DNA of 64,000 nucleotides, taken from NCBI RefSeq assembly GCF_963676685.1, contig NC_092345.1, forward strand, positions 57,536,001-57,600,000, written 5' to 3'. The notes below the pieces were generated by a model. The model worked only from the letters and a program-made list of their open reading frames with translations, searched no databases and had not been told where the DNA came from. The translations under genes and the position numbers were made by a program. Source of the stretch: Mytilus edulis. Lineage: Eukaryota. Below, piece after piece: positions 29,814 to 59,150 of this stretch (position 1 is the stretch's first letter; each line of letters starts with the position of its first letter).

Positions 29814-32800
29814 AGACTGTAGTCATTGGATACTGTAAATCATTCAGGTAGTCTTGACCTATTTATTTGTACAAAAAAAAAAAAAAAAAAAAAAAAAAAC
29901 CCAGCCAGTAGTCATTGGATACTGTAGATCATTTAGGTAGTCTTGACTCTTGACCTATTCATTTGTATTAAAAAAAAAACCAGTCAGTTGTCATCTTCAC
30001 TTCACACACTCATCTACAAATATCAATTATATACTTACGAGACATGTTGCAATGTTCAACTTATTACGGTATGTGGAAATCAAGACTTGCATGAAAAATA
30101 TCCCAATATTAGAGGCAATGGCGTCATTTTTCCTCAGAGCTTTCAGCTCTTTGATTAATTTTTACCCTTGAATGAATATATATCTATTCTTAGTCAAAGA
30201 TTTTGGTATCTTATAAAATGTCAGAATATTAATTTTTTTAATATTAGATAATTTATTGGGTCAAATGTATTTCTGATTTTTTTTTATGATTAAAGGTTAT
30301 TCCTGTTATCAATTATTATGTTGTTCTTTTAAAAGGTGGTCAAGGGGTACCAGATCAATGCCATAACAACAATTTGTATCCAACTTACCAAAAACGACCT
30401 TGTCAACTATGTGAGTCATTAAAACCTACATCAATGGGTGAATGGTCAGACTGTATCCTAGAACCAGTCAGACATGACTATATAACCAATCAACCAGAAC
30501 TGACTAGCAGTAGAGGAAAGAGGACTCGTAACACAACCTCACTTGATATGGGATACATTTGTGGAACAGGAAAAAGAATTAAAGTAGTGGCCTGTAGTAA
30601 CCAAGGATTAGGGATAGAGTCAGCAGACAAATGTAATGGAGCAGGTAACTGTCTCTTATATTTCTATCAATACTTGTAAGCTTAGCTGTACGGGCTTTCT
30701 TTGTGTTACCACAGTTAAATTTTAGGAAAATGATATAGAAAATTAATAGATTTACGTTGACTGAAGTCTAAAGCTGCAACCATCATATATGTTGAATGAA
30801 GAACACGATACAAAAGTCCTATTTTACCTAACCCCTTGAAAATACAACTGCTATAAGATTGAAGATTGTGCTTAAATTTAACTCTACCTTTCTTACAGGT
30901 TATGAAGAAGAGGTATGTTTAATACCATGTCCAGTAGATTGTGAGATGTCTGATTGGACGACTTGGAGCGAATGTCCTGCTAAATGTGGTGCTGGTGTAC
31001 AAACAAGATATCGTAGTATCCGTAGACTTCCATCAGCAGGAGGCAGACAATGTCCATCACTTGGTGCTTCAAGCAAGGTTACTCTTTGTTTGTGTTTGTT
31101 TCATCTGCTCCAATTGTGTTTATTAAAAAATAAAGATACATAATTGCTATAGGCTACACTCAGATGAAAAGTTTTATTAACAACTTTAATCATCTTCTTT
31201 TGCAGTTTTCAGATTTATAGGAACTCTTCAAAGTCTTGTAATGTTGAGTTTTATTAAATACTTAATAGAGAGTCAAAAAACAAAAAAAATATTTATGTAC
31301 AAATTTCGTTCTGTATCAGTCAAGTATAAATACTAGCTTTATCCTTTCAAGGAACATACTATTTTTTTATTTTTATTTTAGGAAGTACAAACAAGGCTTT
31401 GTCATCCTGAGTGTGTACGATATGTATGGAAAACAAAAGCTTGGGGTACTTGTATTCCTCATAATCAACAGATCTGTGGTAATGGAACTCAGACAAGACA
31501 TGTTAGGTAGGTATTAAAATAGTTTACCACAATCCTTTCTTATGTTATTCAATACACTGTTTATTTCATGTGCTTGATAACCTTTTTATTCTGGTGATTA
31601 TAACAAGTTCAGGAAAATCTCAACATGCCTTACATTTTAAGCATTCTGACTTGCCATTGATCAAGACTTCTTAATGATAGAATAGAAAGACTGGACATCA
31701 CTTTTAAGTTCTACTTCTGTACAATGTACTTTATGTTATGCCATCATGTATTTAATTTCCGATAATAAATTCTTTTCATTTCTTTAGGAAATTAATATGC
31801 ATTTAAGTATGAATAATCAACTTGGTCATTATGGTCAAGGTGCTTTTGATTAATTGAGAATTCTTACTCTGGGTCCATGAATGCAAGTTCTGACCAAAAG
31901 GAAAGAAGCTGTTCATCAGTCAATTGAATGCATTTATCTCTGAATTTATTTTTATACGACTGAAAAATTGAAAAATTTTTGGTCATATATTGGTATCACG
32001 TTGGCGTCAGCGTCGTCGTCGTCCGAATACTTTTGGTTTTCGCACTTTAACTTTTGTTTAAGTGAATAGAAATCTATGAAATTTAAACAATAGGTTTATG
32101 ACCACAAAAGGAAGGTTGGGATTGATTTTGGAAGTTTTGGTCCCAACAGTTTAGGAATTAGGGGCCATAAAGGGCCCAAATAAGCATTTTCTTGGTTTTC
32201 GCACTATTACTTTAGTTTAAGTAAATAGAAATCTATGAAATTTTGACACAAGGTTTATGACCACAAAAGGAAGGTTGGGATTGATTTTGGGAGTTTTGAT
32301 TCCAACTGTTTAGGAATTAGGGGCCAAAAAAGGGCCAAATAAGCATTATTCTTGGTTTTCGCACAATAACTTTAGTATAAGTAAATAAAAATCAGTGAAA
32401 TTTAAATACAAGGTTTATGAACACAAAAGGAAGGTTGGTATTGATTTTGGGAGTTAAGATCCCAACAGTTTAGGAATTAGGGGCCAAAAAGGGACCCAAA
32501 TAAGCATTTTTCTTAGTTTTCGCACCATAACTTTAGTATAATTAAATAGAAATCTATGAAATTTAAACACAAGGTTTATGACCATAAAAGGAAGTTTGGG
32601 ATTGATTTTGGGAGTTTTGGTCCCTACAGTTTAGGAATAAGGGCCCAAAGGGTCCAAAATTAAACTTTGTTTGATTTCATCAAAAAATTAATAATTGAGG
32701 TTCTTTGATATATGCTGAATCTAAGTGTGTATGTAGATTCTTAATTTTTTGGTCCCGTCTTCAAATTGGTCTACATTAAGGTCCAAAGGGTCCAAAATTA

Positions 32801-35800
32801 AACTTAGTTTGATTTTAACAAAAATTGAATCATTGGGGTTCTTTGATATGCTGAATCTAAAAATGTACTTAGATTTTTTATTATTGGCCCAGTTTTCAAG
32901 TTGGTTCAAATTGGGGTCCAAAATTAATCTTTGTTTGATTTCATCAAAAATTGAATAATTGGTGTTCTTTGATATGCCAAATCTAACTGTGTATGTAGAT
33001 TCTAAATTTTTGGTCCCGTTTTCAAATTGGTCTACATTAAAGTCCAAAGGGTCCAAAATTAAACTAAGATTGATTTTAACAAAAATTGAATTTTTGGGCT
33101 TCTTTGATATGCTGAATCTAAACATGTACTTAGATTTTTGATAATGGGCCCAGTTTTCAAGTTGGTCCAAATCAGGATCCAAAATTATTATATTAAGTAT
33201 TGTGCAAGAAATTTTCAATTACACAGTATTGAGCAATAGCAAGAAATCATCAATTGCACAGTATTGTACAATAGTAAGAAATTTTCGATTGCACAGTATT
33301 GTGCAATAGCAAGAAATATTCAATTGCACAGTATTGTGCAATAGCAAGTATTTTCAATTGCACGGTATTGCGCAATAGCAAGAAATATTTAATTGCACAA
33401 TATTGTGCAATAGCAATAAATTTTCAATTGGAGTTATCTTTCTTTGTCCAGAATAGTAGTTGAATCAACTTAAATCATTGTTTTATACAATATACAATGT
33501 ATTCACTTTTACTACCAACGGATAAATTAAAACTGTCTTTACCATTCAGTGATAACAAGCACTTTTTTACATTTTAATATTTTATGAATTTAAAAGAGTA
33601 GTTATTGTTGCAAACTCCATTAGAAATTTGAATTGAGATCCTTTTTGGAATAAGGGCAAGGGGGATGTGAAAAAAAAATTTGGGGGAGGGGGGGTGTTTT
33701 CAATTTTTCTCATTTCAGATTTCATAAATAAAAAGAAAATTTCTTAAACATTTTTTTGAGAGGATTAATATTCAACAGCATAGTGAATTGCTCAAAGGCA
33801 AAAAACGAATTTTAAGTTTATTAGACCACATTCATTCTGTGTCAGAAACCTATGCTGTGTCAACTATTTAATCACAATCCAAATTTAGAGCTGAATCCAG
33901 CTTGAATGTTGTGTCCATACTTGCCCCAACCGTTCAGGGTTCAACCTCTGCGGTCGTATAAAGCTGCACCCTGCAGAGCATCTGGTTCAATTTTGCAAAT
34001 GCTGCATTGAAATGAAACAATACATTTTTGTAAATTTTGACTATGCATTAAATCTAAGAAAGCAATTTGAAAGTAGTCTTTTGAAATGGATTTCTGTTGA
34101 TGATAATTATCTTAGTGATGTTTTCAACCTGTAAATCAAATTAAATGTATTAAAGAAAAAGTCAGAACACTAAATCTTGTCATTGAACTTTAAAAGGAAA
34201 CAATTGTTTTTTCATGTCAGAGACTAATCAAGTTTTTGAATTATGCAAACATATTTAAATGTTTCACTTTTGTGATTGGCAATGGAAAAAAAATATATCA
34301 GAAGTAAAATGAAATGGATGGCTGGGTAACTTGAAAATGCACAATTTTTTGTATTTTTTGTTTGTTGGGTATTTTTTTGTTGTTGTTGTTGTTGGGGGGG
34401 GGGGGGGGGGGGGGATAGGGTCATCGGTTTTTATTTTGATTTGGGTTATTATGAGCTGGTGATGGAAAATGATGTATACTTGTTTCAGCAGTGTCCAATA
34501 ATGATTCGAAAACCTAAATTTACAAAGTATTATAAATTTTATGTGATTTATATAAAACTTTATTCCTTTATGACCATTAGATGTTATGCTGTGAATAGAC
34601 ATGGATTTACAACAAGTGCAGCCTCTGATGATGTGTGTGTAAATCAACGTCCTCCAAAAATGCAGCATTGTTATTTATATTGTTTGTCAGATTGTGTGGT
34701 CAGTGTTTGGACAGCATGGACTTCATGTAGCAAGGTAATCTTATTTTTTTTCTAAGGTTTAAACTGTTTGGTTCATTGATGAGAAAGTTTGACCCATCAC
34801 TTACTGTACATTGTGCAAGAAAGAAGATAGTTTTTAAATCATTGATCATACAGTTATTGGTTTGGTAGGAACTGGCTTTAATACAAATTGATTATAAAGT
34901 CCATCAATGTTTTGAAACTTTTGCATCAGAGTCATATTGTTTCTGGAAAATATCAATGTTTTTCAACTGCATCATTTGTATCTTTATGAGACATCTGATG
35001 TTTGAGAAAAATGAATAATAGAAGTATATCATTCCTTCATCAAACCCTCATTAGAACAAGAATATATGATGACAGAAATTACAAGTAATAGACATCGCAA
35101 ATGTCCTTGTAAAATATTTCTTGTGAAGAAACATCAGAAAAAAATAATTAGTATTTAGAAATGTACAGTATTAAGGCTTATCATATGAGTGTCATGTAAA
35201 ATTTTTTATGTTGTAAAAGATTATATTTGGTACAAGAATATGCCTTCCTGGTGACACCTTATTGTGAAGACTAAATTAGCTTTTATCTTTATTTTATAGC
35301 CCTGTAATCATAATGATAGACAAGTGAGGACAAGAGAAGTTTTACGTTACCTGAATTACAACAACTGTCCGGAGGTTCGTGAAACAAAACCCTGCATCAA
35401 AAATGACAATTGTATTGAGTACTATTGGGAATGGTCATCCTGGACGACTTGTTTAATAAACAATGGTATGGACAACTGTGGAGTAGGACATAAAGAAAGA
35501 TATTTAATCTGCAAGAACCACTTTGGCCACACTGTGGATAGTGAATTCTGTGAAGTGGTAAGTGTATAGTTGACAACAGTAACTGCATCAAATAGTTTTC
35601 TCAATTGTTTTATATTTTTCATGTCACAGCCTTTTATTACCGACTATACAGTATTGGTTATATCTATTGTTGACAATATGGTTGCATAAAATTGCTTTAA
35701 CATCCACTTAAATAATAATTGAAGATTGTTATACCCACATTAAGAAAAAATAACACACATTTTTTATGGTATTTTGTCTCAGCTTTATATAGTGATAGAA

Positions 35801-55047: not shown

Positions 55048-56088
55048 ATTATATGTCCCATCTAGGGGCAGTATGGTTTTTCGGTCTGTGTGTCCGGTCG
55101 TTGGTCCGTTCGTTTGATCGTCTGTCCCACTTCAGGTTAAAGTTTTTGGTCAAGCTAGTGTTTGATCAAATTGAAGTCCAATCAACTTGAAACTTAATAA
55201 AATTGAGAATGGAAATGGGGAATGTGCCAAAGAGACAACAACCCGACCATAGAGCAGACAACAGCAGAAGGTCACCAACAGGTCTTCAATACAACGAGAA
55301 ATTCTCGCACCCGGAGGCGTCCTTCAGCTGGCCCCTAAACAAATATATACTGGTTCAGTGATAATGAACACCATACTAAACTCCAAATTGTACACAAGAA
55401 ACTAAAAGTTAAAATAATACAAGACTAACAAAGGCCAGAGGCTCCTGACTTGGGACAGGCGCAAAAATGCGGCGGGGTTAAACATGTTTGTGAGATCTCA
55501 ACCCTCCCCTATACCTCTAGCCAATGAAAAATAAACGCATAACAATACGTACATTAAAATTCAGTTCAAGAGAAGTCCGAGTCTGATGTCAGAAGATGTA
55601 ACCAAAGAAAATAAACAAAATGACAATAATACATAAATAACACCAGACTACTAGCAGTTAACTGACATGCCAGCTCCGGACCTCAATTAAACTGATTGAA
55701 AAATTATGTCTTCATCATATGAATATCAGGCATAATCCTCCCCGTGAGGGGTTTAGTATCATACCATCATAACATATATGAGAAGAACATAACCCGTGTC
55801 ATGCCAACAAATGGTTTATTAATAATAAATGTGTTTAGTTCCGATGCAAAGACCCTATAAGTGAATCAATATTAACGCCAAAATATGCAATCTTTAATGA
55901 CCTGACAACAGTATCGTAACTATATCCCTTCTTAATAAGTCTATTTAAAGGTTTTGTTAGCTTCTTAGTTTACATGCTCCCCATGTTTTGATCTTTCTAA
56001 TTTTAATCATCCCAATATCATGGTCCACTGAACATAGAAATTGATAGTGCGAGTTGGGCATCCTTGAACTAGTGACATTCTTCTTCTT
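55048..56088 (+). mobile_element. Helentron-like element interrupted by a second insertion
   Basis: 5' gtcc/gttc microsatellite-like tract; 5' half ends gaaactta (55196) and resumes gtttacatg (55968). Confidence 0.6.
55197..55967 (-). mobile_element. Penelope-related 3'-end fragment inserted with a CTTA duplication
   Basis: Shares aggctcctgacttgggacaggc..ggcggggttaaacatgtt..caaccctcccct with the PLE tail at 57800-57885. An inverted partial copy lies at about 18620-18750. Confidence 0.65.
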
Positions 56089-57258
56089 ATACTTAAATAG
56101 ATGGCTTCCAGATAAATTGGGATAACGTTTTTTTTTTAAATTTCAATCAGAGGTAGCAAAACTCATCAATGATCCTCGATTCAGAAGAGCTGGCTTACCT
56201 TAATCAAATACAGAGTTAAAAACCGTTATTTACCGAAAAAATAATGAAGTTGATCCAAATACGACAAAGGCAATCTATATATGCGGTAGAAAAACCTTAG
56301 TGATATGAATGTTTGAACATTTGGCATCAACCAAGTGGTTATTGACACTCGGCAAAGGTACCAGGTCCCCAATTACTGGACATCACAAAAGTACCCGTAA
56401 AATTTTGACGTAATAGAAAATATCTGACGCCACAATGGATAAGTGATATTTGTATGACGTCAAATGTCCACACTGGACAGATTTCCAAATAGCGATTAGC
56501 TAGGTGTAATTAAAAGATGTACAATCTTTACGATTAGCATTAAACAAAAGTTTTGATTGTGTACGCTTTACACGTACCCATACTAAATTTTTGAGTTGAC
56601 CCATCGTCTCATTAAATGGAACTTTTTCTGTAAAGTGGTACTTGTTCATTCCTTATTTTATTGTATGCTAAATCATTTGTGAAAACCACTTTGATTATAT
56701 CAACAAAATCATCAACGGCTGGAATTGTTTTATGCACCACAAAATTCCAATGGTTATAAATGTGCACCCTCCTTGAAGATTTTTGTATTCATGTGAAGCA
56801 GAATTCAATTCTCAAAGACAATTAGAACAAAATTCTTGCAAAGTTCTTTGATTTCCGTTTCTGATATATTGATCATGTCCTGTCACTCAATTACCCATAT
56901 TTCAGTGCTTGAATCTCGTAACTAGCAAATTTATGATAAAGGATACTTTGGAAATAAGAAGGTTCTTATTTTGAACTTCCTTGATAACGATATAGATTTA
57001 GGAACAAGAATCCATTACAAACGTAATTATTTCAACTTCCCAATTGACAGCACATTTTCCCAAGCAGTAACCTACAGTTTGCCCAATCTTATGGTGTTCA
57101 CATGTTTCACCAAATACGCTACGCTTGTGCATCTTCACCTTGAACTGACTTCATAAACAAAGATGAACTGCTTACACAAGAATTAAACCAAGTAATATGA
57201 GGACGAACGACTGAAATGGACACTATTAAATGGTCAAATCAGAATTTGTTGACCAATA

Positions 57259-57519
57259 GTTATCAAAGGTACCAGGATTATAATTTAATACGCCAGACGC
57301 GCGTTTCGTTTACATAAGACTCATCAGTGACGCTCAGATCAAAATAGTTGTAAAGCCAAACGAGTACAAAGTTGAAGAGCATTTAGGATCCAAAATTCTA
57401 AAATGTTTTGCAAAAAAAACGGCAATGGTAATCTATTCCTGGGTGCGGACTACTGGGCTGGTAATACCTTCGGGGACGAATAGTCCACCAGCAGTGGCAT
57501 CGACCCAGTTGTGTAAATA
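57259..57519 (-). mobile_element. 261-bp non-coding retrozyme-like insert flanked by an AATA duplication
   Basis: AATA at 57255-57258 and 57516-57519. Removing the insert restores GAC CAA TAC GAT GTA (DQYDV) of the host RT remnant. Contains a hammerhead motif. Confidence 0.75.
57290..57333 (-). ncRNA. Minimal type I hammerhead ribozyme
   Basis: Minus strand GCGUCA-CUGAUGA-GUCUUAUGUAAAC-GAAA-CGCGCG-UC/UGGCGU: intact core, stem I GCGUCA:UGGCGU, short stem III with palindromic GCGC loop, and one mismatch in stem II. Confidence 0.8.
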
Positions 57520-57542
57520 CGATGTACCTGTAGCAACTCTCT

Positions 57543-59150
57543 ATAAAAAAGAAGATGTGGTATGATTGCCAATGAGACAACTATCCACAAAAGACCAAAA
57601 TGACACAGACATTAACAACTATAGGTCACCGTACGGCCTTCAACAATGAGCAAAGCCCATACCGCATAGTCAGCTATATGAGGCCCCGATAATACAATGT
57701 AAAACAATTCAAACGACAAAACTAACAGCCTTATTTATGCAAAAAAATGAACGAAAAACAAATATGTAACACATAAACAAACGACAACCACTGAATATAC
57801 AGGCTCCTGTTTTGGGACAGGCACATACATAAATAATGTGGCGGGGTTAAACATGTTAGCGGGATCCCAACCCTCCCCCTAACCTGGGACAGTGGTATAA
57901 CAGTACAACATAAAAACGAACTATAAAAATCAGTTGAAAAAGGCTTAACTCATCAGATGGACAAAAATATAAGTGGACGTGGCCGGGTACTTATACATCC
58001 CGACACAAAAAGACACAATGAACAGATCTGAGAGTACTCGCAGTTATCTGACAGCTAGTTCAAAGCCACTAACAACTAATAAAAAAATCATGCATCTAAG
58101 ACTAAACTATCAATCCGTACAACATCCAATGGATTTAGTGTAAAGACATCATAAACAGCCAGAGAAAAAACATGACCTTGTGCAATGCCAAGTTACAGGT
58201 ATCGACAGATTGTAGATCCATGAATATGTATATATATAACATACTAGTAAAATTTAGTTAGCTTTTAATCTACTGATAACAAAATCAATATTTATTCCAA
58301 TAAAAACAATATTCAATGATCTTATTACGGTGTTGAATAGGTAACCTTTTAGAATAAGTTTTTTTAAAGGAGCGACAAGTTTACATGGATCATTTCTAAA
58401 TTTCCGGGTACGGTTAACAACATTTCCGTAAAAATGAGGATGTGCTATCCCGTTTGAAATAAGTTTTCTACAGGTACATCCAAACTTCAAAACCAAATCT
58501 TTATATCTATGGAAAAATTTAGTAAAGGTTTTCAGTAATTTATGGTAACGATATCCCTGGTTTAATAATTTACCAAATATACATAGGTTGCGATCGTTAA
58601 AATCAAAAACGTCACAACAGACACGGGCATAGCGAACAAGTTGTGAAATATAAACACCGTAAGATGGTACCAAAGGAACATCACCATCTAAAAATGGAAA
58701 ATTAACAATAGGGAACGAAAAATCGTCTCTTTTGTCGTAAATTTTAGTGTGGAGTTTCCCATTTAAAACCGAAATATCTAAATCCAGGAAAGGACAGTTA
58801 TTACCGAATAAATTTGATTTATTTAAAGTAAGTTCCTTGGGGTAAATTTCAGCAGTATATTGAGAAAATTCTTGATTATTTAACGAAAAAATATCATCAA
58901 GATAACGCTAAGTGTTGTTGAATTTATCAATTAAATGCAATTTCGACGGGTCTTTACTGAGTTTAGTCATAAACTGTGATTCGTAACAGTACAAAAACAA
59001 GTCTACTATTAAAGGGGCACAATTAGTGCCCATGGGGATATCTACAACCTGTTGATAAACTTTGTTGCCGAAACGTACATAAATATTATCAAGAAGAAAA
59101 TTAACAGCTTCAATCATCTCATCACACCTCCAGTAAGTATATCTGCCGAC
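57543..59150 (-). mobile_element. Penelope-like retroelement copy (RT remnant plus about 710-nt 3' region)
   Basis: RT remnant followed by a non-coding tail. Its terminus (aaaagaagatgtggtatgattgccaatgagacaact on +) recurs as solo fragments near 1560, 15661 and 25222. Confidence 0.8.
58254..59150 (-). pseudogene. 5'-truncated Penelope-like reverse transcriptase (RT at the ORF C-terminus, Naiad-like), one in-frame stop
   Basis: ORFs 58908-59117 and 58254-58673 share a frame: IPMGTNCAPLIVDLFL..NNT*RYLDD..FLDLDI..KIYDKRDDFSFPIVNFPFL..SYGVYISQLVRYAR. TAG at 58908-58910. No GIY-YIG follows the RT. Confidence 0.88.

Follow-up and report, generated by a model that had tools for sequence, protein, structure and literature searches.

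Four complementary segments lie within 58 nt on the minus strand of the window (the whole 64,000-nt stretch of Mytilus edulis DNA that was analysed), at positions 57452-57509. Which of these segments pair in the RNA, and what might the resulting fold do? A sequence-only reading had proposed an H-type pseudoknot, and had listed a reverse transcriptase (RT) recruitment signal, a nuclease-blocking knot and an unclassified ribozyme as possible roles. All four complementarities are present as written there. The accompanying claim that four such stems are improbable by chance holds for the set as a whole, as just 1 of 3000 dinucleotide shuffles gave the topology and none did so at the observed score, using a four-stem descriptor that was written after the sequence had been seen. 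It does not hold for the crossing pair (GCUGGU:ACCAGC) alone, which is common, with 247 of 3000 shuffles reaching its score. The folding energy of the segment corresponds to a z-score of -2.62 against shuffles, and 2 of 200 shuffles were as good. A search of Rfam, suggested earlier as a check, gave no match on the fold at E values up to 10 in the window or up to 1 at three further genomic loci (L004, L493 and L578); the sole Rfam match in and around the segment is the neighbouring hammerhead. The features discussed below are as follows, with stem counts taken from an alignment of seven sequences.

57452-57509, minus strand: bulged RNA rod, also present at the 5' end of Naiad elements; predicted to be a likely RT-binding or start-site signal
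57503-57509, minus strand: outer stem P1, 5' strand, 7 bp, partner 57452-57458; 49/49 cells paired, double-sided change in 4/7 pairs
57496-57501, minus strand: stem P2, 5' strand, 6 bp, partner 57463-57468; 42/42 cells paired, double-sided change in 3/6 pairs
57485-57494, minus strand: near-invariant core, 5' side, CUGCUGGUGG; short bulged pairing steps with 57469-57475 are predicted
57474-57486, minus strand: terminal hairpin GGAC/GUCC with a variable, family-specific loop; the most variable part in RNA reads
57469-57475, minus strand: near-invariant core, 3' side, CCCCGAG in most copies; last base changed in the window copy
57459-57462, minus strand: 4-nt internal-loop strand ACCA, read earlier as the crossing partner; variable across Naiads
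57255-57519, minus strand: retrozyme monomer of family A with a 95-nt internal deletion at ~57443, by which most of a UUCG hairpin 3' of the rod is lost
57290-57333, minus strand: type I hammerhead ribozyme, predicted cut after 57296; 30.6 bits, below the gathering score of 34
57255-57295, minus strand: tail of the retrozyme monomer; the insertion end at 57255 is 7 nt before the rod in circular register, the modal end of the family
57541-59123, minus strand: separate, 5'-truncated and broken Naiad-type copy of family N4 (RT/thumb and 3' UTR), given for context

A conserved segment within a mussel retrozyme

The repeat that hosts the segment is 350-365 bp long, occurs both dispersed and in tandem, and carries a type I hammerhead in each unit, which fits the known mussel non-LTR retrozyme as described in the available text of PMC7229834. 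Metazoan non-LTR retrozymes are recognised by short tandem units that each hold a type I hammerhead; the family shows these, and the window copy is a single deleted unit of it. This copy is damaged and probably inactive. One stem II pair of its hammerhead is lost, and the last base of its core is changed, as the same base often is in other copies. The short distance between fold and hammerhead, read earlier as a fold about 120 nt upstream of the ribozyme, is an artefact of the 95-nt deletion that follows the fold; where repeat units are intact, 39-54 nt separate the preceding hammerhead cut site from the start of the fold further downstream. The RT fragment that had been placed in the same cassette belongs to the separate Naiad-type copy, with about 20 nt of other DNA between the two.

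In the 1.37-Gb genome, the fold pattern occurs at least 7,836 times, whereas the control pattern gave 0 matches. A second, nearly palindromic pattern gave 10,548 matches, which lie mostly on the other strand and include some copies twice. We distinguish three retrozyme families, A, B and C, with a divergence of ~25-50% in the body and an identity of 86-91% in the segment. One representative copy of A and one of B agree at 53/58 positions of the fold, 34/46 of the hammerhead and 107/196 of the body. A UUCG hairpin lies directly 3' of the rod (L004 1570-1590 (+), with equivalents in family B), and paired changes between A and B can be seen in it by eye; this hairpin is not found in Naiads.

Could the segment be a neutral relic, inherited from a Naiad and without function in retrozymes? 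Most genomic copies, the one in the window included, do bear scattered changes that appear unselected. However, the segment is the best-kept part of the unit, ahead of the hammerhead in the comparison of A and B, and it sets the same end register as it does in Naiads (see below). We regard a relic as largely refuted and give it almost no weight. Taken together, the comparisons of sequence indicate that the segment is a real, structured, strongly conserved and selected RNA element.

Wider searches brought little additional diversity. Only 1 of 119 matches in metagenome contigs is a real retrozyme copy, and it adds no divergence; the hammerhead pattern had 0 matches in genome_contigs and viral_contigs, and a loose pattern had 52 in viral contigs, with the full fold in none among the 51 listed. 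A strongly decayed copy of the rod at L211 1272-1353 (-) scores 28.3 bits with a covariance model and probably belongs to an old retrozyme. Elsewhere in the window, tandem arrays occupy positions 1-1052 and 32033-33430 (38-bp period; 126-261-bp and 35-bp periods).

The rod at the 5' end of Naiad elements

Potential helpers were sought with a GIY-YIG search, which returned many autonomous Penelope-like elements (PLEs) that were then sorted by endonuclease position. An element with an N-terminal GIY-YIG domain carries a diverged copy of the fold between its tandem junction and its ATG. The rod is present in 18 of 30 loci of this family, N1 (counting loci with an N-terminal GIY-YIG match), as well as in families N2 and N3, and lies 10-17 nt before the ATG. 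The N1-N3 proteins are 56-64% identical, and N3 is the nearest to the retrozymes in the rod itself (51/59). Their frames of ~1000 aa comprise an N-terminal GIY-YIG domain, a CxC motif, a DKA motif and a C-terminal RT, in agreement with the definition of Naiads in the available text of PMC8557442. Full-length copies are preceded by a tandem junction or pseudo-LTR, 5' truncation is also seen, and the 5' end of N1 matches that of the Mytilus Naiads published in the same source. A covariance model from which N1 was left out detects the N1 rod (23.8 bits, E 5e-4) and gives no hit among the C-terminal-endonuclease PLEs whose 5' regions were examined. Those Neptune-like elements were rejected as partners, as their junctions lack the fold; a likeness to the rod in family P3 was set aside as well, since the covariance model did not confirm it. 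No autonomous element with a retrozyme-type 3' side was found among the 100 matches listed of 840.

Three looser families of selenoprotein type, N4-N6, carry in the corresponding position a hairpin of similar build, whose core is related. Their homology is weaker, resting on motif, fold and position, because the covariance model did not detect the N6 junction. The N6 protein is 38-41% identical to that of N3, and in N5 and N6 the reading frame starts some hundreds of bases after the rod.

Two of these families also have in-frame TGA codons. The N5 3' piece in the window (55131-56000 (-)) has an Rfam SECIS match at 55716-55780 (37.1 bits), ~60 nt past the stop, and the full copies L577-L579 have in-frame TGA codons, four of them at cysteine-like positions; N5 is likely a selenoprotein Naiad in mussel. 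N6 (L547, L548, L556) has 5 in-frame TGA codons at conserved cysteine positions. In the N6 copy L547 no SECIS reached the Rfam gathering score, and a SECIS-like stretch past the stop was noted by eye.

Collecting homologues across species, as had been advised, showed the same core in coral, bivalve, hemichordate and fish Naiads. The exact core 8-mer occurs 22 times in the consensus file of PMC8557442, and 14 of these occurrences are at the start of a Naiad, from 3 coral, 7 bivalve (one header not displayed), 3 hemichordate families and 1 fish family. At least 14 of the 54 Naiad families listed in that supplement, spanning four phyla, open with the same core, and 40 of the 54 have no exact core match near the start in this exact-match search. 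One published clam family has a core of the N4-N6 type, and one hemichordate family resembles N1 in carrying a hairpin insertion at the same linker. We also see that the 5' side of the core, CUGCUGGUGG, shows no variation in 7/7 aligned sequences, nor in the bivalve, hemichordate and fish consensuses inspected.

Several other repeats were observed alongside. TA-repeat-targeting PLEs with a C-terminal endonuclease (L405 3050-3200 (+), L406 3560-3700 (+) and L211 3540-3700 (+)) have two alternative 3' ends ~90 nt apart, and have in common a short hairpin motif past the first end, possibly an RT signal of their own. In a 440-bp repeat that sits in TA repeats (L411 596-1180 (+), L416 5224 (+) and L379), a hammerhead-like core adjoins a tRNA-like segment. 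A further hammerhead repeat (L404 1104 (+), L409 1194 (-) and L418 7378 (-)) has a ribozyme like that of family B and no rod in the stretches inspected; it ends in TA repeats, as Neptune-type PLEs do, and may use another helper. At loci L402 and L403, intact PLEs have two reading frames that overlap, as well as a conserved hairpin that follows the junction and precedes the first ATG.

Covariation supports nested stems

The earlier reading had named covariation in both crossing stems as a check on the pseudoknot. In the alignment of seven in-genome sequences, P2 does covary, as does P1, with double-sided changes in three and four of their pairs, respectively, and every cell paired. The proposed crossing stem GCUGGU:ACCAGC is pairable in 40/42 cells, with double-sided change in 0/6 pairs. 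Its 5' strand does not vary at all, and the last two bases of its 3' strand co-vary with the outer stem. The outer stem, taken earlier to be 5 bp long, has 7 bp, with pairs 6 and 7 claiming two bases that had been assigned to the crossing stem.

Family N1 was placed in the seven-sequence alignment by anchors and was left out of a six-row alignment, as MAFFT misplaced its inserted hairpin. In this six-row alignment, the rod model has 6 pairs with double-sided change, a number equalled in 0/500 shuffles, and the knot model has 5, none of which is in the crossing helix. Overall scores do not separate the two models, and the per-helix counts alone do so. RNAalifold returned the rod with a covariation term of -2.52, and single-sequence folding independently yields the same rod for every family. 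Retrozyme copies alone (165 matches; 213 copies) gave no informative covariation in the long stems. P1 and P2 are established by covariation, and the pairing of the core is predicted only, its register having no covariation support because the core is invariant.

Published elements were then compared by eye, using 10 non-coral Naiad families and treating two Mytilus entries as one. Broken pairs number 4/70 in P1 and 4/60 in P2, as against 19/60 in the crossing stem. The crossing stem is intact (6/6) in one of the ten families and has some pairs broken in the other nine, with oyster-type families losing 3-4 of 6. In one hemichordate family, a G-C pair of the core is broken.

A pseudoknot that pairs GCUGGU with ACCAGC across P2, be it the working fold or one of the states of a switch, would account for a 6-bp complementarity that is perfect in three retrozyme families. 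The high share of pairable cells, in which three pairs are changed by wobble, and the one published family that can pair in full are also consistent with it. However, an equal crossing pair arises readily in the shuffles described above, double-sided changes are lacking and the final 3' bases follow the outer stem instead. The stem is also frequently broken in the published families, appears by eye to be absent in N4-N6, and has its middle pair broken in a recurrent variant of retrozyme C. We consider a pseudoknot very unlikely to be the working fold or a switch state. Because the crossing stem is broken in published families and in the retrozyme C variant, it is not a conserved feature, and comparison of the sequences suggests that the fold is most likely a nested, bulged hairpin or rod with a near-invariant core. 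In retrozymes, a knot may possibly form transiently.

With the pseudoknot unsupported, two of the roles suggested for it lose their support as well, namely a nuclease-blocking knot and a counterpart to the pseudoknot of telomerase RNA. Telomerase RNA has a conserved pseudoknot beside a short, repeatedly copied template; here, there is no conserved knot and whole units are copied. A working likeness to telomerase RNA, in which a structure 3' or 5' of the template fixes the start, is possible. The earlier view that the topology is unlike that of HDV-like ribozymes is borne out. HDV-like ribozymes form a double pseudoknot with P1.1, P4 and a catalytic C in J4/2; here, the proposed crossing strand directly abuts P2, and the crossing stem lacks conservation. 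We rejected a reading of the plus strand as an antisense hammerhead or HDV-like ribozyme, since both the G-U pairs and the direction of the reads favour the hammerhead-sense strand.

Insertion ends lie at a constant offset from the rod

Insertion ends were counted by one method across 421 loci, requiring an intact tail and de-duplicating ends by flank. In nine families (three retrozyme and six Naiad), 302 of 349 ends are found 3-10 nt upstream of the outer stem, and the modes are at -5 to -8. For tandem arrays of retrozymes, the 3' ends fall within the 12 nt before the rod in 77/100 cases for family A and 17/21 for family B, whereas 5' ends do so in 2/101 and 3/22 cases and are otherwise scattered. 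Ends for family C were taken from the nine-family count, as the C reference of the A/B comparison had private changes. The distance from hammerhead cut to fold is 47, 39 and 54 nt in the three retrozyme families, and because this distance differs, the insertion end tracks the fold and not the ribozyme. The constant offset also holds in Naiads, which lack a hammerhead, and the nine tails differ while their offset to the rod does not. A cis-acting RT-recruitment RNA would be expected to keep one structure, in autonomous and non-autonomous elements alike, at a set distance from the insertion end, and the rod does so.

In three raw RNA runs, all from one study, the reads extend over the complete unit, and head-to-tail joins are found in 754, 780 and 1818 reads, which fits either circles or tandem transcripts. 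The loose ends of RNA reads fall at the same place, just before the fold. Read ends as such show no pile-up, a result that is neutral as to cleavage, because cut sites do not show in fragmented libraries. Hammerhead-sense reads over the fold are in 5-8-fold excess in two of the three runs, assuming the usual stranded library, and the commonest read variants (among the 40 listed of 45) affect the linker and the terminal loop. For mussel retrozyme RNA, circles have been demonstrated and shown to accumulate stably, according to the available text of PMC7229834.

A proposed start signal for Naiad reverse transcription

We consider it probable that the rod is bound by the Naiad protein, with RT starting 5-9 nt upstream, and that mussel retrozymes, which carry the rod, are copied into the genome by Naiad enzymes. 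The RT-recruitment signal that had been put forward as one option is thus probably correct, for a Penelope-like RT, as the rod is shared with autonomous Naiads and has a fixed offset to insertion ends; binding itself is predicted. The element comes after the tandem junction in autonomous Naiads and after the tail in retrozymes, and in both groups the genomic copies stop immediately short of it. According to the literature, the hammerhead cleaves tandem retrozyme transcripts, and the products are ligated into abundant circles. In the proposed mechanism, a Naiad protein may then grip the invariant core, while its GIY-YIG domain would nick AT-rich DNA and the nick would prime cDNA synthesis inside the RNA, 5' of the hairpin. 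The hairpin would be copied only once the enzyme rounds the circle or enters the next tandem unit, which would yield arrays whose 3' end is fixed while their 5' ends are random. In tandem Naiad transcripts, the signal would be that of the next unit; in a retrozyme circle it would always be present, and several rounds could be possible.

The segment might instead serve expression, as an internal DNA promoter motif or as a signal for translation or stability within the 5' UTR of Naiads, with the fixed end arising from a tail motif or from endonuclease homing. Its position so close to the ATG in N1-N3 would suit a translation signal, but in N5-N6 the frame lies much further downstream, and retrozymes keep the rod without having a reading frame. 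Retrozymes are strongly transcribed and the invariant 10-mer could be a DNA motif, but the stems covary, with G-U interchange on the sense strand. An end set by the tail is hard to match with nine different tails that nevertheless keep a constant offset to the rod. We therefore hold an expression role to be unlikely.

Cleavage would be another way to fix the end. The rod could be a self-cleaving ribozyme or RNA-processing signal, cut a few bases upstream in place of the hammerhead that Naiads lack, with copying from a free RNA 3' end. This agrees with the fixed insertion end, with internal-loop bases that are invariant, as in catalytic cores, and with the absence of canonical hammerheads from Naiads as described in the available text of PMC8557442. 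However, many-unit arrays whose 5' ends are random require read-through of the template at this site, which argues against cleavage there. There is also no match to a ribozyme in Rfam, and the circles accumulate stably, with hammerhead cleavage alone reported in the available text of PMC7229834. We find this reading highly improbable. The same low credence goes to its boldest form, in which the catalytic core would be the ribozyme thought missing from Naiads, a new class with a range from corals to fish; acting by itself or together with the Naiad protein, it would cut 5-9 nt upstream and so make the copy start. On the sequence evidence, the unclassified ribozyme offered as an early option is unlikely. 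A start signal bound by the Naiad protein remains our preferred explanation.

Comparison with known systems

Retrozymes, Naiads and internal initiation were known already. What is new here is that the knot was tested and rejected, that the offset is the same across nine families and that the motif occurs in four phyla. In the literature searched, which lay mostly outside subscription journals, neither the structure nor the pairing of retrozymes with Naiads is described; with no Rfam match either, the early suggestion of an undescribed element stands.

These data bear on which enzyme copies animal retrozyme circles into the genome; in mussels, Naiads are indicated by the shared signal, and this clade has no hammerhead of its own. 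They also provide a candidate for the RNA recognised by a Penelope-like RT, in the form of a 58-nt, covariation-supported motif that is found in four phyla and lies 3' of the putative start. A prediction is that shifting the hairpin would shift the start, which could give a minimal template for a compact RT-endonuclease. The rod may also serve to mark where a Naiad truly begins at its 5' side, and to recognise non-autonomous Naiad parasites.

LINE/SINE pairs share 3' stem-loops, and R2 has a structured 3' UTR; in such systems, a cis RNA structure common to an autonomous element and its parasite recruits the RT. Those structures lie 5' of the start and are copied first, whereas the rod is 3' of the putative start, and no insertion has it at its end. 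PLE RTs and telomerase have a common ancestry, and a rod layout that is unlike LINE or R2 tails bears on that ancestry.

The mussel non-LTR retrozymes described by Cervera and de la Pena (2020, PMC7229834), who proposed PLEs as helpers, are like ours in their 350-365-bp tandem units, type I hammerhead, high copy number and abundant RNA. In contrast to the present analysis, the available text of that paper gives no helper clade, fixed insertion end or shared RNA signal. The Naiad PLEs of Craig et al. (2021, PMC8557442) resemble N1-N3 in the N-terminal GIY-YIG domain, the CxC and DKA motifs and a junction without a hammerhead. No conserved 5' RNA structure or hammerhead-bearing non-autonomous partner is described in the available text, although the structure is visible in the consensus file. 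Li, Clavereau and Pollet (2026, 10.64898/2026.07.22.740005) report, in the part of their work available, a resemblance of retrozymes to the terminal repeats of PLEs, whose enzymes the retrozymes likely borrow. Their study concerns vertebrates and hammerhead-bearing PLEs, whereas here a short structure is held in common with a hammerhead-free clade.

The Anolis Poseidon PLE (Frangieh et al. 2024, PMC11167929) starts inside the RNA at +111-118 and needs RNA to +172. It is like the present case in having an internal RT start and in requiring ~55-60 nt beyond that start, which is the size and the side of the rod. It differs in belonging to another clade and in having two starts in an AC-rich stem-loop within the ORF, with no conserved binding fold described in the available text of that paper; in mussel retrozymes and Naiads, there is instead a single putative start zone just outside a covarying rod.
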